From NCBI GenBank assembly GCA_949425575.1, contig CASPVX010000001.1, forward strand, positions 10,789-74,788: a stretch of 64,000 bases of DNA, given 5' to 3'. The notes under the pieces were generated by a model that made no database searches, was not told where the DNA came from, and saw only the letters and a list, made by a program, of their open reading frames with translations. Shown in pieces: positions 27,651 through 55,404 of this stretch; within the stretch, counting starts at the first letter, position 1, and each line of letters opens with the position of its first letter. Source of the stretch: an uncultured Bacilli bacterium (lineage in GTDB: Bacteria; Bacillota_I; Bacilli_A; RF39; UBA660). A program made the translations under genes and the position numbers.

Positions 27651-27724
27651 TTAATCACCTCTAAGTAATTATATGCATTAAATGAAAACAAGAATATTTA
27701 ATATAACTAAAATTATATAAATAA

Positions 27725-27752
27725 AAACTAGTAGTTTAATCTACTAGTTTTA
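27725..27752 (-). terminator. intrinsic terminator at the virD4-like stop
   Basis: A perfect palindrome AAACTAGTAG-TTTAAT-CTACTAGTTT overlaps the stop codon and is followed by U-rich sequence on the minus strand. Confidence 0.55.
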
Positions 27753-30140
27753 TAAATCCTCGTCATCTGCAAAGAAATCATCAAAAAATTGATCATCTGT
27801 TACATATCTTTCTTTTTCATCTACTTTTTCTGGTAATGATTTTTCTTTTACCTCAGTAGTTAATTCCTTTTTTGATTTTTCCATTTCTGGAAGCATATTA
27901 AATTTTGATGTAGTATTTATATTCTCTTCATATTTCGGAATATTTTCACCTGCAACAATGTTTAAATCTGGAACATTTATTTTAGGTGCTTCTTTTTTTA
28001 CTACTTTTTCTAATGTTTCTTTTGCTTTCAATTCTAATTCAGTAGGTTCATTTACTACTGGCGCTTTTACTATTTCCTCTGTAGGTGCTGGGATTTCTGC
28101 TTCTGGTTCTTCAACATTTGAACTAGAATTATTTCCCATTCCCATAGAACGACCTTTTACTTCAGTTTGTACGAGTTCTTCTTTTTTATTATTAGCTTCC
28201 TCTTTTAAAGCAGACATTTTACTGTCTATTTTCTTTAAAATTTCATCAATTTCACTAACACCACTTGGAACTTTAGGTTCTTTTTCTGCAGATATTGGTT
28301 TAGGTGCTAATGATGGAAGATCATCAATACTTCCAATTGCTCTTGCGCCTAGTCCAGAATATTTTGTTTGTGTTGGATTTTTGAATTTTTCTAAAATACT
28401 ATTTGCTCTTTCCGCTTTTTTAGCTTCTACAAATCCTTTTAAATCAAACACTTTAACTTCTTGTCTTTCACGATGTGGATATCCAGCTTTCTTTCTTTCA
28501 TATCCCCAATCAATCTGATAATCATATTTTAATTTAACTTTTAAAGGATATTCTCTTGTTCTTAAAACAATTATTTCTCCTTTTCCCATTCTTTGTAAAT
28601 CACTAACTGTGATTAATGGTCTATTTTCTTCTTTTTCTTTACCATCTTTACCGCTTTTAACTTTAATTTCGCCACACATTTTACTAATTTCTTCTAGCGC
28701 AGCCATCTCACTACTAATTAAATAAATTATGTTATTACAGTTACCTTTAATAGTATCTCCTTTTTCTTTGCCATAAACATCATTTAATTGAGCAAAGTTT
28801 TGGATTATAAAGTTAAAACGCATATTTCTACTACGTGCTGCTGAAACCATTGTTTCAACATCTTTTAATGGAGGCATATTAGCAAACTCATCTAGAATAA
28901 AGTTTGTTCTATATTGTAATCTTCCCCCATTTTCTTGTGCTACATCTACTAATGTTTCATAACATTGTTTTAAGAAAATTGTTACAAGTGGATGATATGT
29001 TTTCTTTTCGTCTTGAATAATAATAAATACTGCAGTTTTCTTCCTTCCGATATCTTTCATATCGAAATCACTATGTGAAAGCATTTCTGAAATATTTTCA
29101 CGTGAAGCAAATAATCTTAATTTTTGTTTAAAAACAGCTAGAATACCACCTTTTGTTTCATTAGGGGCAATTAAAGTAGATGATGCACTTACATATGCTG
29201 GAGATGTTGGAGGTTTTGTTTCAAAGTATTTTTTAATATATGTTGAAGGACCAATTCTCTCTTCACCAACAGTAGCTAGTAAATTTATACTATTTAAATT
29301 TATTTCTTCTTCTTTTGCATCTTCAAATAAAGCTAAAGTTAATCCTGAAAAATAATCAGCTGATGTTTTTTCCCAGAAAGGGTCTTGCTTTTGTGCATTT
29401 TGATCATACAAAATATTGATTGCTAAGTCGTCAATTAACTCATTTGCTTTATCTCCATTATGATTTTTATAATACTCATATGGTAAATATACTGGATTCC
29501 ATCCACTTCCTTCTTGTGGATTACGGAAATTAAGTAAAACAACATTATAGCCTTTTTCTTTAAGCATTTCACTTGTTTTTTCATAAATTTCACCTTTAGG
29601 GTCAGTAATGATCATTGATTCATTATTTTTGGCTAGAGACTCAACTAATGGTAAAACGACAATTTGGGTTTTACCACTACCAGTAGAACCGATAATGATA
29701 CTATGACTTTCACCATCATCAACCCACATATATTTTCCATCATTAACAAGTGGAATTCCGCCAGCTTCTGCGGTTTTATCAGTTACTTTTACTTTTTTTA
29801 ATAATTCTTTATATTCCTTTTCAGATGCCCATCTAGAAAAACCTTTTTCTTTTTTAGGCTTAGAAAATAAAAGTCCAAAACCTTTATCACGATCAAAAAA
29901 TTTATCAGATACACTAATAATACATCCTACTAAAGCAGCGATATAAACAACCAAAGTTATTCCTATATAATCTTTAGTAAATGCTGGAAATGGATTAAAA
30001 CCATGGAATGGTTTATCTAAATCACTAGCTGCAAATTGAGCTAAATTAAGAACCGCTATTGCAACAAAATATAAAAGAACAACACAGAATATTCCAAAGA
30101 AAGCCCAATCTTTTGGTTCTGCCTGAAACTTCAATTTCAT
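27750..30140 (-). CDS. type IV secretion coupling protein, VirD4/TraG (T4CP) family ATPase
   Basis: 796 aa with two N-terminal transmembrane segments. Walker A IIIGSTGSGKTQ, the ITDPKGE motif, Walker B FILDEFANMP and a C-terminal Glu/Lys-rich extension are present. It has its own upstream TG-extended -10 (TGTGGTATACT). Confidence 0.8.
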   Translation of the reverse strand: MKLKFQAEPKDWAFFGIFCVVLLYFVAIAVLNLAQFAASDLDKPFHGFNPFPAFTKDYIGITLVVYIAALVGCIISVSDKFFDRDKGFGLLFSKPKKEKGFSRWASEKEYKELLKKVKVTDKTAEAGGIPLVNDGKYMWVDDGESHSIIIGSTGSGKTQIVVLPLVESLAKNNESMIITDPKGEIYEKTSEMLKEKGYNVVLLNFRNPQEGSGWNPVYLPYEYYKNHNGDKANELIDDLAINILYDQNAQKQDPFWEKTSADYFSGLTLALFEDAKEEEINLNSINLLATVGEERIGPSTYIKKYFETKPPTSPAYVSASSTLIAPNETKGGILAVFKQKLRLFASRENISEMLSHSDFDMKDIGRKKTAVFIIIQDEKKTYHPLVTIFLKQCYETLVDVAQENGGRLQYRTNFILDEFANMPPLKDVETMVSAARSRNMRFNFIIQNFAQLNDVYGKEKGDTIKGNCNNIIYLISSEMAALEEISKMCGEIKVKSGKDGKEKEENRPLITVSDLQRMGKGEIIVLRTREYPLKVKLKYDYQIDWGYERKKAGYPHRERQEVKVFDLKGFVEAKKAERANSILEKFKNPTQTKYSGLGARAIGSIDDLPSLAPKPISAEKEPKVPSGVSEIDEILKKIDSKMSALKEEANNKKEELVQTEVKGRSMGMGNNSSSNVEEPEAEIPAPTEEIVKAPVVNEPTELELKAKETLEKVVKKEAPKINVPDLNIVAGENIPKYEENINTTSKFNMLPEMEKSKKELTTEVKEKSLPEKVDEKERYVTDDQFFDDFFADDEDL

Positions 30141-30244
30141 AAAAGCCCTCCCTTTAATAATTAATGGTTTTTAGTATACCACAAATTAGCTTTAATTTAA
30201 ATAAATTTCATTTAAACACATACATATTCATTATATCACAAAAA

Positions 30245-30268
30245 AACAATATTAGTTATAATATTGTT
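30245..30268 (-). terminator. intrinsic terminator ending the long tad/T4SS operon
   Basis: The palindrome AACAATATTA-GTT-ATAATATTGTT is followed by a T-run on the minus strand and lies 10 nt below the stop of the 244-aa lipoprotein gene. Confidence 0.55.
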
Positions 30269-30277
30269 TTTAAGTTA

Positions 30278-31012
30278 TTAAAGTTTATTTGAACGTTTAT
30301 GCTTAACAAAGATGAATAATGCGATAAGTCCTAAAACTAATACAATACTAATAATTATAATTACAATCTTAAGAATAGTTTTTCCAATTACATTATCATA
30401 ATTAGAAACTGTTTCTTCTTTACTAAATTGAAATTCAATTGGTTTATTCTCATAATTATCTTTTGTTATATACCATTTATAAACATTATCTTTTACTTCA
30501 TCAGCATTACTTTTAATTACCTTATGATTTGTTTTGATATTAACAGTAACAGTATCTAAAATAGGCACTTCCTTAAAATATTTAAATACTTCGCCTGTAG
30601 AAATAATTATATTTCCATCAATTGTTCCTATTAAAAATCTATTATATGAATCATTAACAATTTTAGAATTTTCGTATTCATCTTTAGTAAATGAATGCTT
30701 GAATTTAATGCCTGTTATATCTTCTGTTGTTAAATCCTCTTTTTCATAATATGTAACATAATCACTTTTAGTATTGTCTTCCGAAAATGCACCTTCCTCT
30801 ACAGAAGTTGGTGTTGGTTTATCTAAATTATAATCATTATAGTCTTCGATAGACATATCATAAGCAATTAGGTTTGTACTACTATCTTCTGATGCAGTTA
30901 CACTTAATTCTTCTTTGTATTCATCATTTACTATTTCTAGATTATATTCGGCATTACATCCGCATAAAACAAAAGGTAACATCATTACAAATAAATATTT
31001 AAATTTCTTCAT
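30278..31012 (-). CDS. lipoprotein with additional C-terminal TM anchor, unknown function
   Basis: The N-terminal lipobox VLCGCN and a C-terminal transmembrane segment ILKIVIIIISIVLVLGLIALFIF are followed by a basic tail. Confidence 0.45.
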   Translation of the reverse strand: MKKFKYLFVMMLPFVLCGCNAEYNLEIVNDEYKEELSVTASEDSSTNLIAYDMSIEDYNDYNLDKPTPTSVEEGAFSEDNTKSDYVTYYEKEDLTTEDITGIKFKHSFTKDEYENSKIVNDSYNRFLIGTIDGNIIISTGEVFKYFKEVPILDTVTVNIKTNHKVIKSNADEVKDNVYKWYITKDNYENKPIEFQFSKEETVSNYDNVIGKTILKIVIIIISIVLVLGLIALFIFVKHKRSNKL

Positions 31013-31020
31013 TTTTCCAC

Positions 31021-33690
31021 CTACCTTTTATTTTTAGGGTTATTATAATAATTTTCCATATCAAACAAGTAATAATCTCCAATACTAGAATATTTTCTCT
31101 TTTTAATTAACATACCTTCAGAAGTTTGTGCTGCTTCTGCTACATAATAACCATCATCATATGTCCCTATTATCATTACGGTATGATGACTATTAACTAA
31201 GAAATCTCCTGGCTGACCACCTTTGATTGCTCCCATTTTACCATGAGGCAGATTAGAAATATATGTTCCTGTAGTTCCTGTAGCAAATTTAAATCCAGCA
31301 TGGTAAATAGCCCAACCAATAAATCCACTACAGTCTAGCCCAAACGGATCTTTTACTGGTTCTTTTGTTAAATGTTCATTTGAGTGTCCTCCACCCCATG
31401 TATATTTAAGACGAACGCCTGTATCCATACTATAATCGCCAATTAAGGCAATTGAGGCAGCTACTACAGCAGCTCTTGTTCCATAACCTGCACTATTTAT
31501 TGCTTGTTTTATATGTTCATTAAACTGAGATATTGATTTAAAATTTTTACCTTTACTTTTTAATGTACAATCAACCATAGATTTTCCGCCACTAATACAA
31601 GTAATCGGCATTGAGGCATTTTGGGTTGCCTTATAATATTCTTCTAAATCATATTCACCAATTTCTCCACGGCAATCAGAGGTTACTTCATATCCATATG
31701 AATCTTTTACTATATCTTGATATTTTTTACCTGCTTTTGCTTGAGATTCCCAAGAGTTTTGTTCTTTAGAGGCAAAATTAGTATATTGTACGAATCCGTT
31801 TTTAGTAGCAACTTGTCCCTTTGTTGATGCAACTTCAGTTCTAATCGATGCGTCTTCTGGAATTGGCTGTCTTGTTAATTTACCATTATAACCACCAGCA
31901 TAAACAGTTGCAGCTCCACTAGTAGTTCCTTGCATACTTCCTGTCATAGATCCACAACCTAAATCAGGATGGCAGAACACCTGATCAGAGGTACTTGTTC
32001 TAATTCTAAGTACCCACTGACCGCCTTCAATACCTATTTGGCCAATACGTCCTCCCATGTGTTGTCCTCTGGTTAAAGCAAAACTTCTAGCTACCACTGC
32101 TTGTGTTTTCCATGTTTCAGCTGATGATCCACCAACTTCTGGATTTACAACACCTAATATATAAGTTTCAAAATCAACTAACCCTTCTCCAGGAATATCT
32201 TCATATTTATCTTTCCCTGGAGGATTACCTGATTCACTTAGTATTGTTCTAACTTGGATATCAGAAATTTCTTCATCTATACCAGATACTTTGTAATAAC
32301 ATACTGCACCTTGTGTATTTTTTGAATTTGTAGACCCTTCTTTTTCCTCAGCCTCACGATAATACTCAGCAAGTTTTATAATATCATCCGCAATTTCATT
32401 TTTACGTTTTTCTTTTATATCATCATCTTGAATTTTATATACATCTGGAATCATGCCTTCAATAAAGCCATATTCACATATACGATATACATTATTTCTG
32501 TCTCGCCAATAAAAGCCCATTGAGCCTACAGTTGAACTAAAAATAACATCTGAAATTGGTTTTGGGGTAAAATATTCAAACGGAATTCTACCTTGGTTAA
32601 TAGCATTATCAAATGCATCTTTTGACATACCAGCATTATCACTAAATCTTTGGAAAAAGCTTGTTACAGAATGACCTATTGTATTTCCTGTACAATATAA
32701 AGGTCTAAAAATATCGTTTTTATAGTTTGCTGTTAGCCATTTCTTATAGTTTTCATCACTGTAAGTATCACCACTATTAGCCATTCCATCAGCTACATAT
32801 TGTAATAAAGATATATTTACAGAAGAATACTGCCCAAAATCATTACCAGCTTCTCCATTTGTATATTGCCAAAAGTTCTCAATAAATCCACTTGATAATT
32901 GTCCAAGCCAATCATCTTGATCATAATTTTCTTGATATTCTACCTCTATAATATCTGATAATTCTGAAGTATATGTAACTGTCGCAATTAAAGCTGCCCT
33001 ATCTATTTTAGAACCATATTTTGATTCTAAAGCTTCTATCTTATCATGCCACTGCTTTTCTTTTATAGACCTAAGTTCTTCTGTGGTACATCCTTGACAA
33101 GCGGCTAATGTTGAATTTGCTGCCTTTTCGGTATCAAAGTATTCTGAAAACCAACTGGCAATCGCATATGGGATTAAAGCTACTATACAAAAAACCAAAA
33201 CAGGAATTGCAAAAGTTGATAAACAACCAACAGTTGCACAACCACCACAACCTGCAATTAAACAGCCTCTTTTCTTTACTTTCTTTTCTTCTTGCTCTTG
33301 CTGTTCTTCCTCTTCTTCTCTTACTGGGTTTATGCCTTTTAATTCTTCCTCTTCATATACTTCTTGTTGTTTTTCTTCAATCTTATTACTTGCATAATTC
33401 TTTACATACTTTTTTAAATTACTTTTTGCCCCATCAGGTATTTTATTATACACACTTTTTGCTCTGGAAGCGATATTTTTACCACCTTGTGCAGCTCTTC
33501 CCGCAGTTGCTCTAGCAGCGCCTGTTCCTGCACGTGCAGCAGTACCTGCGGCTACTCCACTAGTCCCAGCAGCAGCCCCTCCGGTGGCTGCAGTTCCTCC
33601 TACAGCGGCTGTTCCAGCTGCAGCGGTTCCTCCAGCAGCAGCTCCTCCTGCGGCACTTGTAGCGGCAGCAGCGGCAATTGGTGCTGGCAT
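31021..33690 (-). CDS. membrane-anchored cell-wall hydrolase: SpoIID/LytB-like domain + C-terminal NlpC/P60 (CHAP-like) domain, with Ala/Gly-rich N-terminal tail
   Basis: The first 75 residues are A/G/T low complexity, followed by a Cys-rich TM helix (GCLIAGCGGCATVGCLSTFAIPVLVFCIVAL). The central region has SpoIID-like TWKTQAVVARSFAL. The C-terminal region has the catalytic-Cys context GLDCSGFIGWAIYHAG and a downstream His (HHTVMIIG). Confidence 0.65.
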   Translation of the reverse strand: MPAPIAAAAATSAAGGAAAGGTAAAGTAAVGGTAATGGAAAGTSGVAAGTAARAGTGAARATAGRAAQGGKNIASRAKSVYNKIPDGAKSNLKKYVKNYASNKIEEKQQEVYEEEELKGINPVREEEEEQQEQEEKKVKKRGCLIAGCGGCATVGCLSTFAIPVLVFCIVALIPYAIASWFSEYFDTEKAANSTLAACQGCTTEELRSIKEKQWHDKIEALESKYGSKIDRAALIATVTYTSELSDIIEVEYQENYDQDDWLGQLSSGFIENFWQYTNGEAGNDFGQYSSVNISLLQYVADGMANSGDTYSDENYKKWLTANYKNDIFRPLYCTGNTIGHSVTSFFQRFSDNAGMSKDAFDNAINQGRIPFEYFTPKPISDVIFSSTVGSMGFYWRDRNNVYRICEYGFIEGMIPDVYKIQDDDIKEKRKNEIADDIIKLAEYYREAEEKEGSTNSKNTQGAVCYYKVSGIDEEISDIQVRTILSESGNPPGKDKYEDIPGEGLVDFETYILGVVNPEVGGSSAETWKTQAVVARSFALTRGQHMGGRIGQIGIEGGQWVLRIRTSTSDQVFCHPDLGCGSMTGSMQGTTSGAATVYAGGYNGKLTRQPIPEDASIRTEVASTKGQVATKNGFVQYTNFASKEQNSWESQAKAGKKYQDIVKDSYGYEVTSDCRGEIGEYDLEEYYKATQNASMPITCISGGKSMVDCTLKSKGKNFKSISQFNEHIKQAINSAGYGTRAAVVAASIALIGDYSMDTGVRLKYTWGGGHSNEHLTKEPVKDPFGLDCSGFIGWAIYHAGFKFATGTTGTYISNLPHGKMGAIKGGQPGDFLVNSHHTVMIIGTYDDGYYVAEAAQTSEGMLIKKRKYSSIGDYYLFDMENYYNNPKNKR

Positions 33691-33721
33691 AATATCACCT
33701 CCTAATACATTTAACTAAAAC

Positions 33722-34024
33722 TTATTTTTTATATTTTTCATTTTCCTGAAGTTCCCTGCATCCTACTTTCATAAATTCAATAAATTCATCCCATGACATT
33801 TTGTTTTTATATTCTTTTTCAAAATACATTCTAACATCACAAAAATCTGGACGACTCTCATAAATCGAACAAAGGTGTGTTTGTTCATTAAGATACTTAC
33901 ACACCCCATCTCCACGATCTAAATATTTTGCAGGTTCATACATTTCTAAATGACGACAACAAATTGTACATTTATCACAAGGAAATTTACGTTCTTCCAT
34001 TTTATAAACCTCCGCCATCTCCAA
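33722..34024 (-). CDS. YkgJ family CxxCxxCC zinc/iron-binding protein
   Basis: 100 aa with a PCDKCTICC cluster plus additional Cys/His residues. It overlaps the virB4-like stop by 23 nt. Confidence 0.5.
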   Translation of the reverse strand: MEMAEVYKMEERKFPCDKCTICCRHLEMYEPAKYLDRGDGVCKYLNEQTHLCSIYESRPDFCDVRMYFEKEYKNKMSWDEFIEFMKVGCRELQENEKYKK

Positions 34025-35786
34025 ATGACTCTAATTCTTGATCTGTTACTCTAACAGTTATTTGCATACGTTTGCTTCCACAAACAAATAATGCTTCTCC
34101 TTGGTTATAACCTTTTATACCATCTATTTCTTGTTCATTTAAGTCAATTAATTTACTTAAATCCTCTGCAGCTTGCTTACGTAGTTGCATTACTAAATAA
34201 TAAGAGGCATTATCAAAAATTGCTTTACCTTGAGTGATTACCTGTGGATCACTAAAGTCAGTTGGTTGTTGTGTGATAATAATTGTTCCTGTGTTATACT
34301 TTCTTGCACGTCTTTGAACTTGAGCTAAGAAATCAGCACCATAAGTATTACCACCTGTTAATAATACGTGTGCTTCATCAACCATAAGTACTGTATTTAC
34401 ATTAGGGTTTAATGTTAAACTCCATGCATATTTCAAGATATTAAAGAATAGTGCATTTCTTATATTTGAATCAGCATTTAATAACTCTTTGATGTTAAAT
34501 ACAATAAAATCACTCTCAGGTTTTATTGTTGTTTTAGCGTCAAAGTAATATCTTAATTCTCCAACAAGAGGTCTTAATTTTATTTCTAATTGTTCTAAAA
34601 TATCTCTTTCCCTTGTCTTTTCTGGCATAGCTGTTATTTTACCTTTCACCGTAGCATAAACATCCTTAAATGTAGGATAATTCTCTGATTTTAATTTTGT
34701 AAAATCTACACCAAAATCAATACCAAAACGTTTATATGTTTCTTGAAGTGCTTCACTAAATACATTTAAAACATCTTCTGGCATTGATGGATCATAATAT
34801 TTCATAAACGCTTTAATTGTCTGAATTGTTCTTGTTAAAACAGCATGACTTTGTCCAGTTCTAATTTCTTCTTCATCAGCATCCATTATTACTTCTAATG
34901 GGTTGATCATTCCAAATGCTCCACCTTTACCAAGTGAAATATAATCTCCACCATAACGTTTTGTCATACCTTCTAATTCACCTTCAGGATCAATTACAAC
35001 TATTTGATAATCATTTCTGATATGTGATCTAATCATTAACTTAGCAGCAGTTGATTTACCACTTCCTGAAGTACCTAAAATAATCATATTGGCATTATTT
35101 CTATTATGTTCTTTCTTTTGTTGATATAAAAATTGATTAAATAATACTACTCCTCCAGAGAAATCAACACCTAGTAAAGTTGATAATCCTGGATCTTTAA
35201 TTGTATCAAAGATAAATGGATACATAGCAGCGATTGTAGGCGATGGAATTGGAGTACCAATTCTTTCTTCTACATCTTGCCTTGGGAAGATTGGAAGCAT
35301 AGATTTAAGAACTTTTTCTTGTTCAAACATTAAAGGAATAGCTCTCATTTCCATTGCTTCTAAATAACTTTTAACTTGAACTTTTAACATAGTAAGCTCA
35401 TCATCTGAATTAGCTGTAAGCATTATATGCATTTGAAAATCATAAACCTTTGATTGACTTGCTGCCAAATCTTGAATGAAATACTCTAACGATTCATAAT
35501 CTTGTCTAATTCTTTCTTGAACAGTTAAATCATGTTCTTCTTGATATCTTGATTTTAAATCAACAATTTCCTTATTGATCATTCTTTGAACAATACTAAA
35601 TGCCATTGGAATATGTTTAATAACAATTTTTACTCCTGACATACTAGTTATATTTGATAAATATCCTGGATAAATAAATTTAGGATACCCTATTACAGTT
35701 AAAATAGTAGAATGTTTATCACTAACTATAAGTTCAGTTGGTTTAAACTCTAGCCCCTTAGGAGCTATTTCATTTTTTATATTCAT
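34002..35786 (-). CDS. conjugal transfer ATPase, VirB4/TrsE/PrgJ family
   Basis: 594 aa with Walker A ILGTSGSGKSTAAK and the hallmark IDPEGELEG. Walker B is LMVDEAHVLL, and the C-terminal IIITQQP motif is present. Confidence 0.8.
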   Translation of the reverse strand: MNIKNEIAPKGLEFKPTELIVSDKHSTILTVIGYPKFIYPGYLSNITSMSGVKIVIKHIPMAFSIVQRMINKEIVDLKSRYQEEHDLTVQERIRQDYESLEYFIQDLAASQSKVYDFQMHIMLTANSDDELTMLKVQVKSYLEAMEMRAIPLMFEQEKVLKSMLPIFPRQDVEERIGTPIPSPTIAAMYPFIFDTIKDPGLSTLLGVDFSGGVVLFNQFLYQQKKEHNRNNANMIILGTSGSGKSTAAKLMIRSHIRNDYQIVVIDPEGELEGMTKRYGGDYISLGKGGAFGMINPLEVIMDADEEEIRTGQSHAVLTRTIQTIKAFMKYYDPSMPEDVLNVFSEALQETYKRFGIDFGVDFTKLKSENYPTFKDVYATVKGKITAMPEKTRERDILEQLEIKLRPLVGELRYYFDAKTTIKPESDFIVFNIKELLNADSNIRNALFFNILKYAWSLTLNPNVNTVLMVDEAHVLLTGGNTYGADFLAQVQRRARKYNTGTIIITQQPTDFSDPQVITQGKAIFDNASYYLVMQLRKQAAEDLSKLIDLNEQEIDGIKGYNQGEALFVCGSKRMQITVRVTDQELESFGDGGGL

Positions 35787-36629: not shown

Positions 36630-36651
36630 ATACTCGCCCCTTTCTAATAAA

Positions 36652-37173: not shown

Positions 37174-37183
37174 AATCTATCCT

Positions 37184-44925: not shown

Positions 44926-44972
44926 TTATATCACCACCTTACTATTAGTAATTATAACATAATTTTTTTATT

Positions 44973-46675: not shown

Positions 46676-46689
46676 TATTATTACCTCCT

Positions 46690-47982
46690 TTATTCATTTA
46701 TATTCCCAGCATTTACTGGAACTGCACTTACTGTTGGTGCAGGATTAATTGGTGCAGGGTTCACTACAGGTGCATTATTTACTACCGTAGTAGGTCTTAC
46801 CACTGCAGGAGCTACTGGAGCATTATTTACTACAGGAGCTTCTTTTTTTATACTTAAACTAGGATCTAGTTTAATATCTGGCTCAATGCTTGTATCAGCT
46901 TTAACTTCTAAATTAGAATTATCCTCGGCTAAAGTTGTTAATTCTTTTGGTAAAGTAACACCTTGAGCATCTAAATAATCTATTAAATATTTACTTGGAT
47001 TATTTCTAATTATATTTCCAGTAGTAGTTTTACGATAAATCGTATTACTTTCTGCTTCATTTTCATCAGTTACATAAAATTCAGTAACTTCCGCAATTTC
47101 CCTTACAAAACGTTTAGTTTCCTTATCTTGATAACCCCTTATATACACACCAATTTGAACATAACGATAAATCATTTTTAAAAATTGATCTATATCTTGG
47201 CTTGATTCAAGTAAACTATACATACGATGTGGAATTGCAGCAGCTTTATCAGCATGGATTGTTGATAAAATGTAGTGTCCAGAAGAAATTGAGTTTCTTA
47301 CAGCAAGTACTGCTTCAGCACTACGCACTTCTGAAAGTAATATCCATTTAGGATTTTGACGCATACAAGTTACTAAAACTTCTGAATATGAAGCAATATT
47401 ATTTGTTTTCATAGCAACAATATCTCGGTGTGGGAAGATTCTGTCTAAGTGTAATTCTAATGTATCTTCAATAGTAATTACTTTTTCATCTTCTCTAATA
47501 TGTGATGCTAAATATTTTACAAATTCTGTTTTACCAGAACCAGTTTCACCACAAACGATAATGTTACAATGTCCTTCTACGCATTTAAATAATAAATCAT
47601 GAATGTCTAACTCTATATATTTTTCATTCAATAACTTTTCTTTTTCAAGTCTAATTTTTGCTGGAGTCTTACGGATAACGCAAGCAATTCCATTTGATGC
47701 AATAGATTCATGAACGAAATTTAAACGAAGTTCAGCACTTTCAGCATCCAAAAATGGATGTGCCATATTAAAGGTAGTACCCATAACATTTGAACACTGA
47801 AAGGCTAATTTTTCCATAAATGCATTATTAATGGCTGGATTATCAACTCTATAAATACCCTTTGATAAGGTTTTTAAATGAACTTGTCCACCATTACTAT
47901 AAGAAATATCTGTTATATCATCATTATTTAAATACTCTGCAAGTGGCCCAAAATCAATTTGGGAGAACATATTATCGTTCAT
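46690..47982 (-). CDS. CpaF/TadA-family type II/IV secretion ATPase with Pro/Val-rich C-terminal tail
   Basis: Walker A IIVCGETGSGKTEF, the Asp box, Walker B and the His box (..ILSTIHA..) are typical of VirB11/CpaF ATPases. The last ~55 residues are PV low complexity (NNAPVAPAVVRPTTVVNNAPVVNPAPINPAPTV). Confidence 0.85.
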   Translation of the reverse strand: MNDNMFSQIDFGPLAEYLNNDDITDISYSNGGQVHLKTLSKGIYRVDNPAINNAFMEKLAFQCSNVMGTTFNMAHPFLDAESAELRLNFVHESIASNGIACVIRKTPAKIRLEKEKLLNEKYIELDIHDLLFKCVEGHCNIIVCGETGSGKTEFVKYLASHIREDEKVITIEDTLELHLDRIFPHRDIVAMKTNNIASYSEVLVTCMRQNPKWILLSEVRSAEAVLAVRNSISSGHYILSTIHADKAAAIPHRMYSLLESSQDIDQFLKMIYRYVQIGVYIRGYQDKETKRFVREIAEVTEFYVTDENEAESNTIYRKTTTGNIIRNNPSKYLIDYLDAQGVTLPKELTTLAEDNSNLEVKADTSIEPDIKLDPSLSIKKEAPVVNNAPVAPAVVRPTTVVNNAPVVNPAPINPAPTVSAVPVNAGNINE

Positions 47983-48890: not shown

Positions 48891-48915
48891 AATCTTTCTC
48901 TCCTCTTTCTTTCTT

Positions 48916-49323
48916 TTAATATGGCACTTCTAATATTGCATTTATTCTATTAGAAAGTGTAACATCTGTTGCTTCTCCACTAAAGCCATTGCTTCCTGTT
49001 GTTTCACTAGTTACTTTAACACTAACCTTTGGTGGGAATTCATTAATATCATAAAAATCTATTTTATAATGTCTTGAAGTTTCAGCACTTTCGGCATATC
49101 TTCTTGTAAAGTTTTCAACAAACTTTTCCCTATCTATTCTAACCACACCATAAGCAGCATAGCCAGCATAGTCAAAAGCATCCCACATTGCAGCCTCTGT
49201 AACTTCTTTTAATAATTGCGAATTGTGTTCATCGGTATTTGTAACATTTTGGAAAAATACTAATAATAGTAGTGATACTGATCCAAGTAATACTACAAAT
49301 ATACCCCACATTGCCTCTTTCAT
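48916..49323 (-). CDS. small N-terminally anchored protein, possible TadE/TadG-like pseudopilin
   Basis: 135 aa with hydrophobic segment WGIFVVLLGSVSLLLLVFF followed by a soluble domain. Confidence 0.35.
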   Translation of the reverse strand: MKEAMWGIFVVLLGSVSLLLLVFFQNVTNTDEHNSQLLKEVTEAAMWDAFDYAGYAAYGVVRIDREKFVENFTRRYAESAETSRHYKIDFYDINEFPPKVSVKVTSETTGSNGFSGEATDVTLSNRINAILEVPY

Positions 49324-49329
49324 AAATTA

Positions 49330-52119
49330 TCACTCTCCATTGCAAGAACCAAAGTTATTACAATTTTTAGTAGCAAAGCTTCCTACAAATCTACTTATAC
49401 ATTCTTGCCCTTTTATATTACAATTTAAATTGAAATCATCATATGATGTTTCGCGATTGTAATCTTTTATTGTTCTTATTGTTTGTCCATCTAATTCAAC
49501 TGTATACATTGGGGTTAAATCATAAACTGAATCACCTTTAACACCTCTATTATTTAAAATATAAGTATCAACCACTTCATTCTTTTCATTCCAATAACAA
49601 CTGAATTTATTATTTTTTTGATTATATTGACACCAGTTAAGCCCTGAATATCTATTACTTCCTGCCCTTCCTGGGAATGGATTATCTAAATCTATTGTTC
49701 TATATATAATATTTCCATTTCCTGTTGCAGGAACACAAACACCATTAATCTCTTTAATACATGTTGATGGTGCGTCTGGATCTGGATCTGGAATTTTAAA
49801 TCCTGGATCTGGTTCTACACAACCGGGACAATCAGGTACTGGTATGTCTGGTATATCTGGAATATCAGGTTCTGCTTCTATTTTACAAGCATAATCATTT
49901 CCACTTTCATTTCTACTTTTAACATAACAATTAGTACCAGTAGTGTTTCCTATTTTATTAACTGTCCTATTTTTAATACAAGTATCAACACCTGACTTTT
50001 TACATGTTATTCCATCCTTTGTTCCACTACATAAATATAATTTAGAACAAGATGAATTGATTAATTCACTTCTCTTATTTGCTTCAGTTATTCCTGTAAC
50101 AGCCGTCTTAGAAAGTTTCCCCTTAGATGTAACATATTTATATATATTAGAATTTTCACCACCTGATGTTTTTGAAGCACACGATGGTAAATAATTATTA
50201 TCTTTTATAAATGATTTAGATAAATGCATATCTTTATCCAGCATAAATTTAAGTGATATTGTTCCATCATTTTCAGTATAGACACTATTATTTGGTGAAA
50301 CTGGAATTGTCGCAATACCTAAATCAATATAGTCATTACCTGTTTTTGTATTAGTAAATATTCCACTATCTTTTAGAACATATCTAAATGTATTGCCTGG
50401 TAATTTGTACGAAATTGTTTGAACATCTTTAAATACATAGTTACTTTTCAACTGTTTATCTTCTGAAACGTATTTACTTGCACTTACGTTGGTAACTTGT
50501 CTAGTTGATGAGCCAAACTCTTTTTCTCCTTCAGCATCTAAACTTAAGTTCGTTAATGCTTTTTCGTACTCTTTATCTGCCGTTGTTTTATCATCAGAGT
50601 TTCCTCTATAAGTAAGTTGAACATTTGGATTTTGTTTGAATTTTAAATTATTTATATTATTTTTTAAACAACTTTGCTCGTTTGAAGCATTTTTCATACG
50701 ACATTCTCTAGTTTTAATAATTTTGATATCACCCCAGTTATGATTATATTTATTATCATTTAGTATTTTAATAACATCGTCATAACCTGCAACTTTTTCT
50801 CCATATGCATTAGTACCTATTACTTGATTATCCTTATTAATATCTCTAAAAGGCGAATGAACTGTAAAATATCTTCCTGTTTGAACTGTTGGTGTATTAT
50901 TTGCGTTAGGAAATACTACTTTAACTTCTTCTCTACAATAAATAGTTTTTTTTCCACAGCTCATTTTTTTATAATAATTTTTAACGTTATTTTTTTGACT
51001 CGATGTTGCTGCTTCACATGTATAATTCTTGTCGTCGCTTCTAAAAATATTATCCCATTCTGTTGTATCTTGAATTACGTAAGAAGCTCTATCCTTGTTT
51101 TTTTCATTGTCATCACAACCTACACAAGCAGCATCAACTGTATAATCACCTGCATCACATTGAGGCTCATCTCCAGATGGAGGCAGTGGCGAAACTAGTA
51201 TACCAACAAAATATCCGCTTTTATTGCTTTTTGTATGTTTTTTAAAATCATTTTTACTGCAGCCGTTTTGAGTGCCGACCTTAAAAGTATGATTTGTAAC
51301 TTGTAGTCTCCATAATCCCAAGTTGCAATTTGAAAACTTCTTTGTATCACAACTGTTTTTTGTAATTTTTACCGCATTTGCCATAGCAGATAACACGGAA
51401 CAGTGCATCTTACTTCCACTATAAGCTTGACTAGTTTTATAAAGTAGTTCACTTCCAGTACCAACAGTTACATCTTTTCCTGTTCCACCATAACTAGTAA
51501 GTGGTTCATAAATAATATAAGCTTTTTTCAAATTATTCTTATTTGCTGAACAAGCTGCTGCTTCTGAACTTTTAAATGCTTCGTCATAACTAAGTCCAAA
51601 GCAAGCTTTAAATAATTTTTTTGCTGCATTTGGATTTTTTTCTATATTTTTAAATGAAGCATTCGGTGTTTTTCCATTACCACTTATAAAATTACCGAAA
51701 CTAATTCCATAATCTGAAGCATTCCCCCAAGAATAATCTCCTTGCTTCCACCCTTTATATGTACCTATTGATAAATCTGTTTTTGAACATAGTGAAGTAT
51801 TACCATCTGGTTTTTTACACAAAGTGTGCTGAGCACTTGAAGTAACTCTCTCTACACCATTCTTGCTTGAACGACTTCCATACAAATCTATACTATTACT
51901 ATAATAAGATGTCCCATTGGCCATTATTTTTAATCTAGTACCATCCGCGTTTACAAAAGTGACACGAATACCAACGACACCACTATTCCAATTACCTTTT
52001 CCTGATTGTGCACTAGAACCACTTGATGTTCCTGTTCCTGATTGATCCCACCCATTGGCAATCAAAGGAAAAAGCGACGCTGTCATTATAGCTAATAAAC
52101 AAATTATTTTCTTTTTCAT
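49330..52119 (-). CDS. large secreted cysteine-rich protein (~45 Cys), possible pilus-associated adhesin/tip protein
   Basis: 929 aa with signal peptide MKKKIICLLAIMTASLFPLIANG and a Gly/Ser/Thr-rich N-terminal region. Cys are spaced throughout. A PDIPDIPDIPVPDCPGC linker is present. There is no C-terminal anchor or LPxTG. Confidence 0.5.
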   Translation of the reverse strand: MKKKIICLLAIMTASLFPLIANGWDQSGTGTSSGSSAQSGKGNWNSGVVGIRVTFVNADGTRLKIMANGTSYYSNSIDLYGSRSSKNGVERVTSSAQHTLCKKPDGNTSLCSKTDLSIGTYKGWKQGDYSWGNASDYGISFGNFISGNGKTPNASFKNIEKNPNAAKKLFKACFGLSYDEAFKSSEAAACSANKNNLKKAYIIYEPLTSYGGTGKDVTVGTGSELLYKTSQAYSGSKMHCSVLSAMANAVKITKNSCDTKKFSNCNLGLWRLQVTNHTFKVGTQNGCSKNDFKKHTKSNKSGYFVGILVSPLPPSGDEPQCDAGDYTVDAACVGCDDNEKNKDRASYVIQDTTEWDNIFRSDDKNYTCEAATSSQKNNVKNYYKKMSCGKKTIYCREEVKVVFPNANNTPTVQTGRYFTVHSPFRDINKDNQVIGTNAYGEKVAGYDDVIKILNDNKYNHNWGDIKIIKTRECRMKNASNEQSCLKNNINNLKFKQNPNVQLTYRGNSDDKTTADKEYEKALTNLSLDAEGEKEFGSSTRQVTNVSASKYVSEDKQLKSNYVFKDVQTISYKLPGNTFRYVLKDSGIFTNTKTGNDYIDLGIATIPVSPNNSVYTENDGTISLKFMLDKDMHLSKSFIKDNNYLPSCASKTSGGENSNIYKYVTSKGKLSKTAVTGITEANKRSELINSSCSKLYLCSGTKDGITCKKSGVDTCIKNRTVNKIGNTTGTNCYVKSRNESGNDYACKIEAEPDIPDIPDIPVPDCPGCVEPDPGFKIPDPDPDAPSTCIKEINGVCVPATGNGNIIYRTIDLDNPFPGRAGSNRYSGLNWCQYNQKNNKFSCYWNEKNEVVDTYILNNRGVKGDSVYDLTPMYTVELDGQTIRTIKDYNRETSYDDFNLNCNIKGQECISRFVGSFATKNCNNFGSCNGE

Positions 52120-52129
52120 TTTATCACTC

Positions 52130-52807
52130 CTATAATAAATCTTGTCCCTTTCTTCTTTTAACTATTTTAATCACAACAAACGCGATAATACCAATAACCA
52201 AAATAGTTCCTAAGCCAATTATTAAAAATTTATATTCATCAAAGAAATTGACTTTATTTTTTTTAGCTTTCGATATATCAGACTTATTACCATTCTTATA
52301 TTTTTCTAATGCTGCATTAAAATCGTCTACATTCAAATTAGAAGTATCTAACCAGGTTTTACAATATTTAAAATCAGGATATTCTTCACATTCATCAAAC
52401 GTTGAATATTCATTAAATTTAGGAAAAGTTATGTATTTACTAGTTAACGATTGACCTTTACAGTTAGGATCATTTGAATAAATTGTATATGTAATACTTT
52501 TCCCTGATTCAAATTTCGTCGGATCGGTTGTTTCTCCTGTTCCCACATGAGTATTGCCCGTTTCTGTGTTTTCAATATAAATGTCATTTGTTAGATTACT
52601 AATATGTGTGGAAAATAGAGCCGCCATGATTTCTGACTTTCCTCCATCATCTGGTACAGTTTTATCAAATTCATATGTATAGCTTAAATTAACATTGTTA
52701 GCGATTTTATTAAGTTCTGCAATTCTTTCACTACTACATTCTGCATGAGCCGATATAGGCAAAAAGCATAGGGCCGCAGCTATGCCTAAAAAGTATTTTG
52801 TCCTCAC
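52130..52807 (-). CDS. exported protein with signal peptide and C-terminal TM anchor
   Basis: 225 aa with signal LGIAAALCFLPISAHA and C-terminal transmembrane segment FLIIGLGTILVIGIIAFVVI followed by a KRRKG stop-transfer. Confidence 0.4.
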   Translation of the reverse strand: MRTKYFLGIAAALCFLPISAHAECSSERIAELNKIANNVNLSYTYEFDKTVPDDGGKSEIMAALFSTHISNLTNDIYIENTETGNTHVGTGETTDPTKFESGKSITYTIYSNDPNCKGQSLTSKYITFPKFNEYSTFDECEEYPDFKYCKTWLDTSNLNVDDFNAALEKYKNGNKSDISKAKKNKVNFFDEYKFLIIGLGTILVIGIIAFVVIKIVKRRKGQDLL

Positions 52808-52846
52808 TTTCCTATCCTCCTTATATCATTATAGCATAATTCATAA

Positions 52847-54454
52847 TTATTTTAAAATATATTTATACTCCTCATTTCTTACTTTAAAATCAAAATATAT
52901 ACTTGTTGCTTTTGCAACCTCTGGAACTACTTCTATATAATAAGTATCTTCTAATTTTGCTTTCTGTGGAGTAACCCTTCTTAACGTTGTTGGATGAGTA
53001 TATGTTTTACCATCAACAACATAAGTTAAAATACCGAATGAATTTATAAAATCAAATAAATCATTCATTTTACTAATATTTACAGAACTATCTTTTTTAA
53101 ACGTTCCCTCTATTTTCATAATTACTTTGTTATAATTTGAAGAAGCTGTTGGATTAACATATTCTACCGAATTAACACACTTTGAAGCAGTGTAACAATA
53201 ATTATAAGAAATTTTAAATTTTTCAGCTATTTGATAACTGTTAATTTTTAAAGTGGTTTGTCCTAAAATGCTATCTTTTAAATTTAATGTTTCCCCTATT
53301 TTTTGAGTTTTATTTTCTTTAATTTTATCTAAATTTATTGGTTTTAATTTAACATAAATACTTTTAGCCCCTACTTCACCTCTTACAAAACTAACCGTAT
53401 CATTAAACTTAAGTTGCATACTCTCTTTCATAAGACCTTTTGGAATTTCATAAACCAAAATATATGATTTATAATCGCCATCTAATTTTTGATCAAAATA
53501 TATATTTCCTAAATCCTTAACCGTATTAATATATTTTGTAGTAGGTCCAAAACTATAATTTTTAATTCTTAAATTAGCAAGTCCTGTATTTAATTTTTCC
53601 GTATTTTGATTATTAGCCTTAACTTCTATTCTTAAAACAACTAAGGCCTTATCATTATTAAGTTCATTTAATTTATAATCTTTATTTGTAACATAAGCAG
53701 ATTTAACAATCATACCTACACCGCTTGCTACAAAAGGTGTTCTTTCATTTACCTTCATAGTATAAATACCTACATTAAAATAAATAAGTAACCCTACAAA
53801 TAAAGCAATAATAATTGAAGCAACTGTTACAAAAAATTTATTTTCAACAATTGCATATTTTGCATGTCTAAGTTTTGATCTAAAACTTCTTTCCACAACA
53901 TTTCTATTAAATTCAACATCAACTTCAAATTCTTCATTATCTTCAGTTTTAATATCCAACTGTTCTAAATCTTCACCAAAATCAAATTTTTTAATATCAA
54001 ATCCAGTAGAACGAATAATCGCAGTAATAAATACACCAATTTGAAGTAACATTGAAATAGTTAAAAAGTCTCTAATTAATGTTACTGTTGTGATTTCTAA
54101 AATTTGTGAACTAACAGTTCTTAATGCAGAAAATGCGAAACCATAAATAATAATAGTTTCAGCATAAGCAACTAAGTTATAAATATATTGAATAAAAGGT
54201 TTCTTTTTAACTATCATTACTGATAATAAAATCACATTAAAAACAATTACTAAAAAAACCAAAAGAAAAGTATAAATGTTAATATAACTACTAATATCAA
54301 AATCATTAATTAATTGACTCGTTTTAGCATAATCAGAAAAAAATGAAACCATTTTTATAGTTTTTAGAATTAAAAACGCTGATAATATAGCTATTGCAAC
54401 ATGAAACCATCTAAAGTATTTGATAAAAAAGGCATATGGCTTTCTTAAAATCAT
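52847..54454 (-). CDS. polytopic membrane protein with large extracytoplasmic C-terminal domain; first gene of the tad/T4SS operon
   Basis: 535 aa with 4 N-terminal transmembrane segments, an acidic loop, a fifth transmembrane segment, then a beta-rich domain of about 300 aa. A divergent promoter region lies upstream at 54455-54637. Confidence 0.4.
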   Translation of the reverse strand: MILRKPYAFFIKYFRWFHVAIAILSAFLILKTIKMVSFFSDYAKTSQLINDFDISSYINIYTFLLVFLVIVFNVILLSVMIVKKKPFIQYIYNLVAYAETIIIYGFAFSALRTVSSQILEITTVTLIRDFLTISMLLQIGVFITAIIRSTGFDIKKFDFGEDLEQLDIKTEDNEEFEVDVEFNRNVVERSFRSKLRHAKYAIVENKFFVTVASIIIALFVGLLIYFNVGIYTMKVNERTPFVASGVGMIVKSAYVTNKDYKLNELNNDKALVVLRIEVKANNQNTEKLNTGLANLRIKNYSFGPTTKYINTVKDLGNIYFDQKLDGDYKSYILVYEIPKGLMKESMQLKFNDTVSFVRGEVGAKSIYVKLKPINLDKIKENKTQKIGETLNLKDSILGQTTLKINSYQIAEKFKISYNYCYTASKCVNSVEYVNPTASSNYNKVIMKIEGTFKKDSSVNISKMNDLFDFINSFGILTYVVDGKTYTHPTTLRRVTPQKAKLEDTYYIEVVPEVAKATSIYFDFKVRNEEYKYILK

Positions 54455-54637
54455 GTATGTGCAACCCCTTCCCTATTCTCTATTCATTATACATTATTTT
54501 ACTGTAAAAAAAAAGTAATTTTTTGGAAAATATTAACTTTTTATTAATAATTTCTGCACTTTGATACATAGTAAAATTGTTTACACTTAAAATATTTTTT
54601 TATTGTTAAACATAATTTGAATGTGCTAAAATAATTA

Positions 54638-55303
54638 ATGAAAGTAGGGATCAAAATGGCATCTTCACTTATTCATATTTGTGTAGCAAAAAAAGTTAAT
54701 GAAACATTAAACATGGATGAAAAACAAATATATTTAGGTGCAATAGCCCCAGATATAAGCAAACTTATTAATGAAACAAAAATAAAATCACATTTCCTAA
54801 TTGATGAAGAAACTGGTGTGCCTGATATAAATAAATTTTTAGAAAAATATAAAACCAATTTAAATGATCCCTTTGTAATGGGATACTTTGTTCATCTATA
54901 TACCGATAAAATTTGGTGGGAAGAATTTATGCCTAATAAATTTCTATTTACAAAAGTAAGATTATTAGATGGTTCACTTGTAGAATTAAAACAAAAAGAG
55001 TGGCTTCACCTTTTATATAATGACTATACAAATTTGACCACACAATTACTTGATTATTATAATTTAGATTTATCACTTTTTTATGAAGAATTAAAGTTAC
55101 CTAAAAACATAATTAAAGAAATTCCTACCGAGAAATTACCACTCCTTTTAAATGATGCTGGTAAAATAATTATGAATAGCAAAGAAGAGAAAACCTATAT
55201 GTTAGATATTTCTAATATTATAGATTTTATAAATAATTGTACTGAAAGAATCATTAAATCTTTAAATAAGATGGACATAAATAAAAACTCAGATAATATC
55301 TGA
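54638..55303 (+). CDS. hypothetical protein, possible zinc-dependent phospholipase C/P1 nuclease-fold protein
   Basis: 221 aa with His/Asp-containing segments (SSLIHICVA, GAIAPDISK, GYFVHLYTDKIWWEE) reminiscent of metal ligands. Assignment is weak. Confidence 0.3.
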   Translation: MKVGIKMASSLIHICVAKKVNETLNMDEKQIYLGAIAPDISKLINETKIKSHFLIDEETGVPDINKFLEKYKTNLNDPFVMGYFVHLYTDKIWWEEFMPNKFLFTKVRLLDGSLVELKQKEWLHLLYNDYTNLTTQLLDYYNLDLSLFYEELKLPKNIIKEIPTEKLPLLLNDAGKIIMNSKEEKTYMLDISNIIDFINNCTERIIKSLNKMDINKNSDNI

Positions 55304-55317
55304 GTTATTTTTATATA

Positions 55318-55404
55318 TGGTGCTCGTATTCGGACTTGAACCGAAACTTCCAAAGGAAAATAGATTTTGAGTCTATCGCGTCTACCAATTTCGCCATACG
55401 AGCA
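55318..55404 (-). tRNA. tRNA-Leu (anticodon CAA), long variable arm
   Basis: The minus strand GCTCGTATGGCGAAATTGGTAGACGCGATAGACTCAAAATCTATTTTCCTTTGGAAGTTTCGGTTCAAGTCCGAATACGAGCACCA has anticodon loop CTCAAAA, a class II variable stem-loop, T-loop TTCAAGT and an encoded CCA. Confidence 0.85.

Follow-up and report, generated by a model that had tools for sequence, protein, structure and literature searches.

Among single-membrane bacteria, the only case that appears comparable to the system described here is the type IV secretion system (T4SS) of Patescibacteria. This T4SS is chromosomal, derives from the monoderm class of conjugation machinery, mostly lacks a relaxase and is accompanied by arrays of 2-11 divergent VirB2-like pilins (PMC12102498). 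It has been reported to be essential (PMC12857230), and a 2025 review considers it unique among monoderms on the grounds that it is needed for growth and may build pili (PMC12857230). A role in exchange that supports a dependent lifestyle has been proposed for it. The order RF39 of the Bacillota is abundant and widespread in the animal gut and uncultured; its genomes are reduced, with many auxotrophies (PMC12306168), and its synthesis of peptidoglycan precursors is predicted to be incomplete (PMC10868615). Our literature searches found no paper tying RF39 to a T4SS. Here, we analysed a stretch of 64,000 nucleotides from an uncultured RF39 bacterium (GenBank assembly GCA_949425575.1, contig CASPVX010000001.1, positions 10,789 to 74,788 of the forward strand; hereafter the window, to which all positions refer), in which a T4SS-containing gene block lies between a rhodanese gene and a tRNA-Leu gene. 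We are confident that this block is a domesticated, non-self-mobile system belonging to the core of its lineage. On balance, and with more reserve, we favour the reading that it is a fixed, vertically inherited descendant of a Gram-positive conjugation module, which carries a cargo other than relaxase-bound DNA and serves the cell in exchange with its neighbours.

The block is a single co-oriented run of 26 open reading frames (ORFs) on the minus strand, from 54454 to 27750, and it unites three modules, namely a Tad-like pilus, a VirB2-like "T4SS_pilin" gene array and a Gram-positive-type T4SS. A preliminary description of this DNA had called it a T4SS-containing block, which holds for the T4SS part and leaves out the pilus module and the pilin array. 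The identities and positions which that description gave for the rhodanese, tRNA-Leu, Rpn-family, VirD4 and VirB4 genes agree with Pfam and the tRNA call. The landmarks are as follows.

55318-55403, minus strand: tRNA-Leu(caa), a neighbour of the block, neither an attachment site nor a component of the system
46690-47982, minus strand: CpaF/TadA-type secretion ATPase, called 'VirB11' in Bacillus plasmids (Pfam T2SSE, 5.7e-26)
34002-35786, minus strand: C-terminal motor part of the VirB4 ATPase (Pfam TraG P-loop, 9.4e-16; AAA_10; DUF87)
27750-30140, minus strand: VirD4-type coupling protein with a long disordered acidic tail (Pfam T4SS-DNA_transf, 5.5e-63)
27724-27751, minus strand: terminator-like hairpin that ends the run (11-bp stem, T-rich tail), right after the VirD4 stop codon
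27363-27650: rhodanese gene (Pfam, 1.5e-15)
26219-27283: RmuC gene, on the flank of the block beyond the rhodanese gene
25139-26041, minus strand: Rpn/PDDEXK_2 gene (Pfam, 1.9e-18)

Conservation of the block was assessed with a one-genome-per-species scan, which returned at least 80 distinct species-level loci, so that all counts drawn from it are lower bounds; synteny was followed by tblastn, with the proteins of the window as queries and these loci together with 32 CpaF-anchored loci from metagenomes as targets. The loci are labelled as uncultured Bacilli, Tenericutes or Mollicutes, and one as Acholeplasma sp. CAG:878; in GTDB, CAG-878 is a genus of order RF39 (PMC8035907). Database relatives of VirB4 number more than 7,000, and the best 120 of them share 77-100% identity and are nearly all exactly 594 residues long; in at least 80 species genomes, VirB4 is 73-79% identical. 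The exact VirB4 occurs on contigs from several metagenome samples, with identical neighbours in all six places examined. At 50% clustering the whole VirB4 clade forms one full-length cluster, the next full-length relatives standing at 42% and the following ones at 34% or less. The gene order also recurs across species, running from p535 and p225 (numbers give lengths in residues) through DUF5411, CpaB, CpaF, TadB, TadC, the pilins, TadZ, the T4SS_pilin array and VirB6 to PrgI, the VirB4 N-domain gene, VirB4, a variable interval, VirD4, rhodanese, RmuC and often RNase R, and the rhodanese-RmuC flank is found in most of 67 species loci. Median identities of the block proteins (VirB4 75.5%, CpaF 76.6%, TadB 73%) compare with those of RmuC (73.5%), SmpB (72%) and RNase R (57%). 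Pairwise VirB4 distances correlate with those of RmuC (r = 0.78, Mantel p <= 0.001, n = 38), and VirB4 diverges more slowly (mean distance 0.185 vs 0.239). The fixed site and order, the co-divergence with RmuC and the slow change of VirB4 therefore indicate vertical inheritance at a fixed site under purifying selection. This does not fit an integrative and conjugative element (ICE), for which variable presence or insertion site is a hallmark; here the same flank recurs in most of the 67 loci and the context is identical in six samples. The preliminary description had proposed comparing the locus with close relatives, and this comparison finds it syntenic at a fixed site and vertically conserved lineage-wide.

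Several metagenome-assembled genomes labelled Muribaculaceae, Bacteroidaceae or Vescimonas (loci L018, L028, L029, L054, L059, L064 and L008) carry a Bacilli-type locus with VirB4 at 73-79% identity, and mislabelling or contamination of the bins is the probable explanation. In two complete chromosomes of RF39, each about 1.5 Mb long (L010, OZ007038.1 105943-127724; L013, OZ007022.1 78231-100012), the locus is placed within about 130 kb of the record start, which may or may not be dnaA; proximity to the origin has been noted for the T4SS clusters of Patescibacteria.

We then consider the genes of mobility, for which Pfam was run on every long ORF of the block and of both flanks (positions 1-64000). 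No relaxase, Rep_trans protein, tyrosine or serine recombinase, excisionase or DDE transposase was found in the 64-kb window. As positive controls, Pfam detects the MobL relaxase of plasmid pBMB67 at 1.8e-22, and a Resolvase/Recombinase gene is listed in the precomputed Pfam matches of an ICE of Thomasclavelia ramosa. The pBMB67 MobL, used as tblastn query, had no match below E=1 in either the window or 136 related loci, and there was no relaxase in the 20-kb windows of 80 other species; among the 126 ORFs of the VirB4-VirD4 interval in 35 species, Pfam found neither relaxase nor recombinase. The gaps between block genes do not exceed about 185 bp, so a relaxase pseudogene would not fit into them. 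The 3' end of the tRNA-Leu gene, queried with 25 and 16 bases, stays single-copy in the window when 3 or 2 mismatches, respectively, are tolerated, and the direct repeats between 25000 and 58000, considered as possible attachment (att) sites, amount to short AT-rich matches at chance level. No candidate origin of transfer (oriT) was seen in the window, whose inverted repeats are short and AT-rich. These results bear out the earlier statements that the block has no relaxase, integrase/recombinase or excisionase, now extended to the whole window, and that the tRNA-Leu 3' end is not repeated, now with mismatches tolerated. The preliminary description had added that mobility genes just outside the block would make this a conventional ICE, and both flanks were searched for them with none found in the window. 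It was also right to call a VirD4 and VirB4 set without such genes unusual. Its suggestion that the location beside tRNA-Leu is telling was, on the other hand, an over-reading. In one species locus (L093) ScpB/ScpA adjoin the tRNA-Leu, as they do in the window, but the orientation of this segment to the block is reversed, and in another (L092) a tRNA-Gln rather than tRNA-Leu abuts p535 at that block edge; the tRNA-Leu adjacency is therefore incidental and not linked to the block.

Two further candidate signs of mobility were tried and set aside. A direct repeat near both block edges (27680-27722 and 54261-54303; 72% over 43 nt) was rejected as an att pair because it is AT-rich and imperfect and one copy lies inside the p535 ORF. 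A GC content, in 2-kb steps, of 0.24-0.36 in the block against 0.23-0.29 in the flanks was considered as a signature of foreign DNA and judged weak, since the peak, over the hydrolase and VirB4 region (31-35 kb), takes in the Ala/Gly-rich start of the hydrolase gene.

The absent mobility genes and the adjoining tRNA gene might also be expected of a decaying ICE remnant with no current function. This explanation is already contradicted and we give it next to no credence: none of the 26 ORFs is broken and each of the three ATPases has its Walker motifs; conservation of VirB4, CpaF and TadB equals or exceeds that of RmuC, SmpB and RNase R; the VirB4 family is very large and keeps its 594-residue length; and an otherwise variable VirD4 tail ends in an invariant short peptide. 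That peptide belongs to the T4SS module, whose remaining features are listed here.

37184-40063, minus strand: VirB6/TrbL-like channel protein (below threshold only: Pfam TrbL_4, 0.0021)
36652-37173, minus strand: cytoplasmic helical protein of 173 residues, with no family match
36312-36629, minus strand: PrgI/VirB3-like protein with two transmembrane (TM) segments, inferred from a position like that of PrgI in pBMB67
35786-36331, minus strand: separately encoded VirB4 N-terminal domain, p181 (NCBIfam Mbov_0397 ICE VirB4, positions 98-276, 1.7e-14)
33722-34024, minus strand: small protein with a CxxCxxCC zinc/iron-chelating domain (Pfam, 9.7e-07), species-specific
31021-33690, minus strand: cell-wall hydrolase with SpoIID and NlpC/P60 domains, an Ala/Gly-rich N-terminus and a TM segment
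30278-31012, minus strand: lipoprotein with a lipobox in its translation and a C-terminal TM anchor, from a variable multi-copy family
27771-27797, minus strand: core (DDQFFDDFF) of the VirD4 C-terminal peptide VTDDQFFDDFFADDEDL, a candidate docking peptide

VirB4 matches the VirB4 structure 4ag5 in the PDB at 2.1e-57, and VirD4 belongs to the NCBIfam equivalog conju_CD1115 (323.8 bits against a cutoff of 250) and is 31% identical to the VirD4 of pBMB67. The VirB4 N-domain gene is 28% identical to the gene before VirB4 in pBMB67 and has a weak TraC-like match in precomputed Pfam data. The VirB6-like and PrgI-like proteins fit by position and topology, with sequence matches below threshold: for the former, NCBIfam gives the conjugation membrane proteins pLS20_p028 and MMCAP2_0566 at 1.4e-05, and for the latter the similarity to pBMB67 PrgI is weak (E 0.011), with a median identity of 51% across species. 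The tblastn match of the VirB6-like protein in other species spans a median 46% of its length, and its residues from about 410 to 959 form a Q/E/K-rich coiled-coil C-terminal extension of about 550 residues.

Between VirB4 and VirD4 lies an interval of changing content, at 30141-34001 in the window and 2.4-6.7 kb long across species. In 35 species (L007-L051) the hydrolase keeps its position and its catalytic domains differ, with SpoIID, CHAP, C39-like, M23, NlpC/P60, glucosaminidase, endolysin-like, Amidase_5, lysozyme and Amidase_2 domains found there; the 126 ORFs of the interval match 20 Pfam families, mostly peptidoglycan-hydrolase domains together with a few weak lipoprotein or miscellaneous matches. 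In the window, the SpoIID match (3.2e-06) lies above its cutoff and the NlpC/P60 match (0.0015) below. Rapid swapping of hydrolase domains, in a locus that is otherwise passed on vertically, suggests a pressure whose source lies outside the cell, such as the walls of partner cells. A link to a sporulation channel (SpoIIIA-like), which the SpoIID domain had brought to mind, was rejected because other species have different hydrolase domains at the same position. The lipoprotein family has 1-3 paralogues per locus in this interval and is a candidate for the VirB8-like (PrgL/TcpC) component. Between the lipoprotein gene and VirD4 there is an inverted repeat (30235-30278; 20-nt arms, 85% complementary, 4-nt loop), which may be a hairpin with a regulatory or attenuator role or else a chance product of the AT-rich sequence.

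The peptide [VI][TS]DD[QE]FFDDFFxD[DE] closes VirD4 in 58 of 60 species (L007-L086), and in one more with a single substitution; it follows a hypervariable, unalignable acidic linker and reads TDDQFFDDFF in the window, where this motif occurs only once. An invariant peptide on a variable tether may therefore be read as marking a docking site for a conserved partner. That partner could, in a different explanation, be a relaxosome accessory protein, and the block would then still be a conjugation apparatus, acting for a relaxase and oriT carried by mobilisable elements or by another part of the genome. VirD4-type coupling proteins do normally recruit relaxosomes, and in some conjugative systems the coupling protein and relaxase are encoded away from virB4 (PMC12102498). 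We nevertheless hold this explanation to be improbable. The site and order of the block are fixed order-wide and it co-diverges with a housekeeping gene, which is atypical of self-transmissible or helper elements; the relaxase is missing from the 64 kb, from the windows of the 80 other species and from the variable interval of the 35; and in pBMB67 the relaxase gene lies beside VirD4, a position taken here by the terminator and the rhodanese gene. The preliminary description had left three options for this relaxase-less set: domestication of a former conjugative element and a substrate different from relaxase-bound DNA both stand, while a relaxase acting in trans has become unlikely.

Upstream of the T4SS genes lies the pilin array.

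41637-42038 and 41188-41601, minus strand: two tandem VirB2-like 'T4SS_pilin' paralogues (Pfam PF18895 family)
40087-41082, minus strand: long-form pilin, a secreted domain of about 210 residues followed by a VirB2-like hairpin (hhalign)

There are 1-7 T4SS_pilin copies per locus. In the family assembled from related loci, PF18895 matches 52 of 74 members, the best at 2.8e-05, and the individual matches are weak; a mixed scan that included homologues of the long form gave 15 matching sequences, the best at 1.6e-06. An AlphaFold2 (AF2) model of the T4SS_pilin, built like the other AF2 models here with alignments of database homologues, is a helical hairpin (residues 24-57 and 62-99; predicted local distance difference test, pLDDT, 86-90). 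Foldseek returned nothing below E=1 for this model against the PDB, a helical hairpin being too generic for such a search. Residues 237-330 of the long form align with the pilin family by hhalign (probability 97.2%, E 3.4e-11).

The rest of the run is the Tad-like pilus module, preceded by the three envelope proteins with which the run opens.

52847-54454, minus strand: p535, first gene, a 535-residue polytopic membrane protein with a large extracytoplasmic C-terminal part
52130-52807, minus strand: p225, a 225-residue secreted protein with a signal peptide and a C-terminal TM anchor in its translation
49330-52119, minus strand: p929, a 929-residue Cys-rich secreted protein with no Pfam match
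48916-49323, minus strand: DUF5411 protein (Pfam, 6e-52), whose pilin-like N-terminus, 'MKEA', precedes a TM helix
47982-48890, minus strand: CpaB/RcpC-like pilus assembly protein with a SAF domain (Pfam RcpC 5.6e-07, 29.9 bits vs a cutoff of 28.8)
45770-46675, minus strand: putative TadB-like platform membrane protein, directly after the ATPase
44973-45770, minus strand: putative TadC-like platform membrane protein (25% identity to the second pBMB67 membrane protein, 7.3e-06)
44758-44925, minus strand: 55-residue pilin-like protein with a short leader, a hydrophobic helix and a variable Cys-rich tail
44268-44729 (153 residues, p153) and 43744-44268 (174 residues, p174), minus strand: two paralogous minor-pilin-like proteins, by topology and position
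42723-43811, minus strand: TadZ-like protein with an N-terminal alpha/beta domain and a ParA/MinD-type domain; likely start 43754
42113-42742, minus strand: BspA-type leucine-rich-repeat (LRR) surface protein (Pfam LRR_5, 2.3e-26)

The top PDB sequence matches of the ATPase are CpaF (4.4e-16) and VirB11 (4.5e-15). The CpaB/RcpC-like protein is 26% identical to a SAF protein of pBMB67, and the TadB-like protein 21% identical to the membrane protein that follows the pBMB67 ATPase (4.9e-08). The DUF5411 protein is a probable minor pilin; in pBMB67 a DUF5411-like gene likewise precedes the CpaB gene (8.9e-06). The 55-residue protein is the probable major Tad-type pilin: its N-terminus, MKEAAGEAN[LM]TV..I.LI, is conserved in the 49 loci examined and its C-terminus varies. 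The two minor-pilin-like proteins are 32% identical to each other, open with a common 'M[KR]ES I..' leader ahead of a TM helix, and show no consistent Pfam family among 40 members. An AF2 model of the TadZ-like protein (343 residues; C-domain pLDDT about 85) matches ParA, MinD, FlhG, FleN and the two-domain Eubacterium rectale protein 3fkq in Foldseek, the last of which we take to be the solved TadZ structure; this is the sole conserved cytoplasmic protein in the block without an assigned function, and by its fold it is not a relaxase. The DUF5411 protein, the 55-residue pilin, p153 and p174 each begin with an 'M[KR]E' leader ahead of a hydrophobic helix, which would suit processing or recognition by a single system.

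Upstream, p535 has no Pfam match; its homologues (26-37% identity) lie before the Tad module in other species, and in L091-L093 directly before a p225 homologue. Weak homologues of p225 occupy the same upstream region in several other species, and similarity to p929, a candidate surface or pilus-associated adhesin, is partial and patchy. In two loci (L099 and L100, 2255-12830; CpaF 76% identical), p225-, p929- and DUF5411-like genes accompany CpaB, CpaF, TadB and TadC, and the ORFs downstream of TadC are unrelated, being neither pilins nor T4SS genes; judging from these gene contents, the Tad module may occur without the T4SS in some relatives.

The pairing of a type-IV-type pilus with a relaxase-less T4SS that has VirB2-like pilins opens a further explanation, namely relaxase-independent exchange or uptake of DNA, in which the Tad pilus would join cells and the T4SS would move chromosomal DNA, as in Ced/Ups, mycoplasma chromosomal transfer or pXO16. 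The same pairing has been described for archaeal Ced and type IV pili (PMC12102498), and pXO16 moves plasmids and chromosomal loci with neither a relaxase nor an oriT identified (PMC9673590). The best named matches of p181 and the VirB6-like protein are mycoplasma ICE proteins, the recombination-associated RmuC is a conserved neighbour, and RF39 genomes are reduced. Against this, VirD4 is kept and strongly conserved, and the presence of a coupling protein speaks for export out of the cytoplasm; Pfam finds no single-stranded DNA-binding protein (SSB), primase, ComEA/ComEC or other DNA-handling gene in the block, whereas the Thomasclavelia ICE keeps SSB and primase; and the RmuC adjacency may be mere synteny. 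To our knowledge, the DNA importers ComB and Ced lack VirD4. We therefore regard DNA exchange as a minority possibility, rather unlikely though deserving of more weight than a relaxase acting in trans.

We return to the reading that the block is a vertically inherited machine with another cargo. All DNA-processing and integration functions appear to have been lost from the locus, whose parent would be of the module type in which T4SS and Tad-like pilus occur together. A cargo different from relaxase-bound DNA is favoured because every DNA-processing gene is gone, and export is favoured over pure import because the coupling protein is retained; by this reasoning, the cargo is most likely not a relaxase-DNA complex. 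In outline, the Tad-type pilus (CpaF, the TadB/C-like, TadZ-like and CpaB-like proteins, the 55-residue pilin and the minor pilins) would contact a neighbouring cell and the large hydrolase would open the peptidoglycan. The split VirB4 with the VirB6-like and PrgI-like proteins would build the membrane channel, which the VirB2-like pilins, including the long form with its extra outer domain, would extend outward. VirD4 would pick a cytoplasmic cargo or adaptor through its C-terminal acidic-aromatic peptide and feed it to the channel. The cargo might be a protein or other macromolecule swapped with neighbours, which would support a dependent lifestyle with a reduced genome.

A number of points weigh against this reading. 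The relaxase search in this genome covers the 64-kb window. A conserved tail on VirD4 would be equally expected of a coupling protein that docks a relaxosome, as in the TraD-TraM pair of the F plasmid. The co-divergence of VirB4 and RmuC is not fully independent of linkage, because RmuC adjoins the block. Some component assignments are themselves weak. The TadB-like protein has no Pfam match and a family profile search against PDB sequences was likewise empty; the TadC-like protein has no Pfam match either; the VirB6-like protein shows no BLASTP similarity to the TrbL of pBMB67; and the PrgI-like assignment is weak. The VirB2-like one draws on many sub-threshold Pfam matches and a generic hairpin. 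In addition, Pfam finds no prepilin peptidase (peptidase A24) in the block.

Three block genes (33722-34024, 36652-37173 and 42113-42742, minus strand) have no detectable counterpart by tblastn in other species, and these genes, for the CxxCxxCC-domain, 173-residue helical and BspA-type LRR proteins, look like lineage-specific inserts, the first and the last being specific to this species. Promoter-like sites were no more frequent than in shuffled sequence. The window as a whole is AT-rich (GC 0.23-0.36 per 2-kb step) and its minus strand carries nearly all genes. The flanks of the block are housekeeping in character, with a GerA operon, PBP5, SmpB, RNase R, ScpA/B, LigA and PcrA (Pfam, out to positions 1 and 64000). 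They include the following.

7620-11430, plus strand: GerA/GerAC/spore-permease germination operon
22103-25078, minus strand: classic trans-translation cluster of transfer-messenger RNA (tag GKEKANFGTLAFA), SmpB and RNase R, adjoining tRNA-Thr and tRNA-Gln

The germination operon, found in a genome whose size is roughly 1.3-1.5 Mb, agrees with a published prediction of retained sporulation in RF39 (PMC10868615). The Rpn/PDDEXK_2 gene carries a GIEQ-repeat tail, occurs in few species and shifts its location, lying between VirD4 and rhodanese in L048 (16900-17703) and within the block in L072 (14559-15476).

If our reading is right, the block offers a case of a conjugation module turned cellular organ, and the locus provides a testable handle on the biology and cultivation of RF39, with the VirD4 tail usable as bait for its cargo. 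A bolder extension, which we put forward as speculation and think doubtful, is that RF39 depends on cell contact through this T4SS-Tad-pilin machine, that the machine is near-essential with hydrolases tuned to the walls of partner cells, and that this would explain failed cultivation and amount to a second, independent origin of an epibiont-style T4SS. Were it true, contact dependence in RF39 would parallel that of Saccharibacteria on their hosts.

To conclude, we compare the block with the systems that it most resembles. Its best plasmid matches are to plasmids of Bacillus thuringiensis, and the conjugation regions of B. cereus-group plasmids (pBMB67, NC_009841.1; the pAW63/pXO2 family with VirB4, VirD4 and 'VirB11') have the same two modules. 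The T4SS module has VirD4 (CD1115 family), TrbL, PrgI, a VirB4 N-domain gene and VirB4, and the pilus module a DUF5411-like protein, a SAF/CpaB protein, two ATPases (one ParA-like, one of CpaF type) and two membrane proteins. However, identities are only 21-31% and the module order differs. Unlike the block, pBMB67 has a MobL/MobP3 relaxase gene directly upstream of VirD4, is a plasmid with partition, toxin-antitoxin and insertion sequence genes, has no detected PF18895 pilin array, and its VirD4 is without the FFDDFF tail. The ICE of Thomasclavelia ramosa holds the nearest named VirB4 (34% identity) and has the core order of the block, with a VirB6-like protein, a small TM protein, a VirB4 N-domain gene, VirB4 (606 residues there) and a hydrolase; it differs in its SSB, Toprim primase and large serine recombinase at the edge, and in having sortase/SpaA pili instead of the Tad module. 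Tad/Flp (type IVc) pili match the block in their CpaF-type ATPase, RcpC/CpaB and TadZ-like protein and, more tentatively, in two platform-like proteins and a short pilin with minor pilins, whereas the block has no prepilin peptidase, its pilus module sits within a T4SS run, and its pilin leader MKEAAG/EAN departs from the classical Tad/Flp motif G/XXXXEY.

The T4SS of Patescibacteria (Saccharibacteria and relatives), like the block, is found on the chromosome of a single-membrane host with a reduced genome, is conserved by lineage and comes from Gram-positive-type conjugation machinery. Both have VirB4, VirD4 and a hydrolase, probably also VirB6-like and VirB3-like proteins, with no relaxase in the cluster, and both have tandem divergent VirB2-like pilins detected with the same Pfam family, PF18895. 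The block differs, when set beside published descriptions only, in its Bacillota host, the fusion with a Tad module, the split VirB4 and the FFDDFF tail of VirD4. A Patescibacteria-like genomic signature (chromosomal, lineage-core, relaxase-less and with VirB2-like arrays) is now seen in another phylum-level setting. Among named organisms, the block VirB4 has its nearest relatives in Erysipelotrichales, which suggests that this system and that of Patescibacteria may have been domesticated independently.

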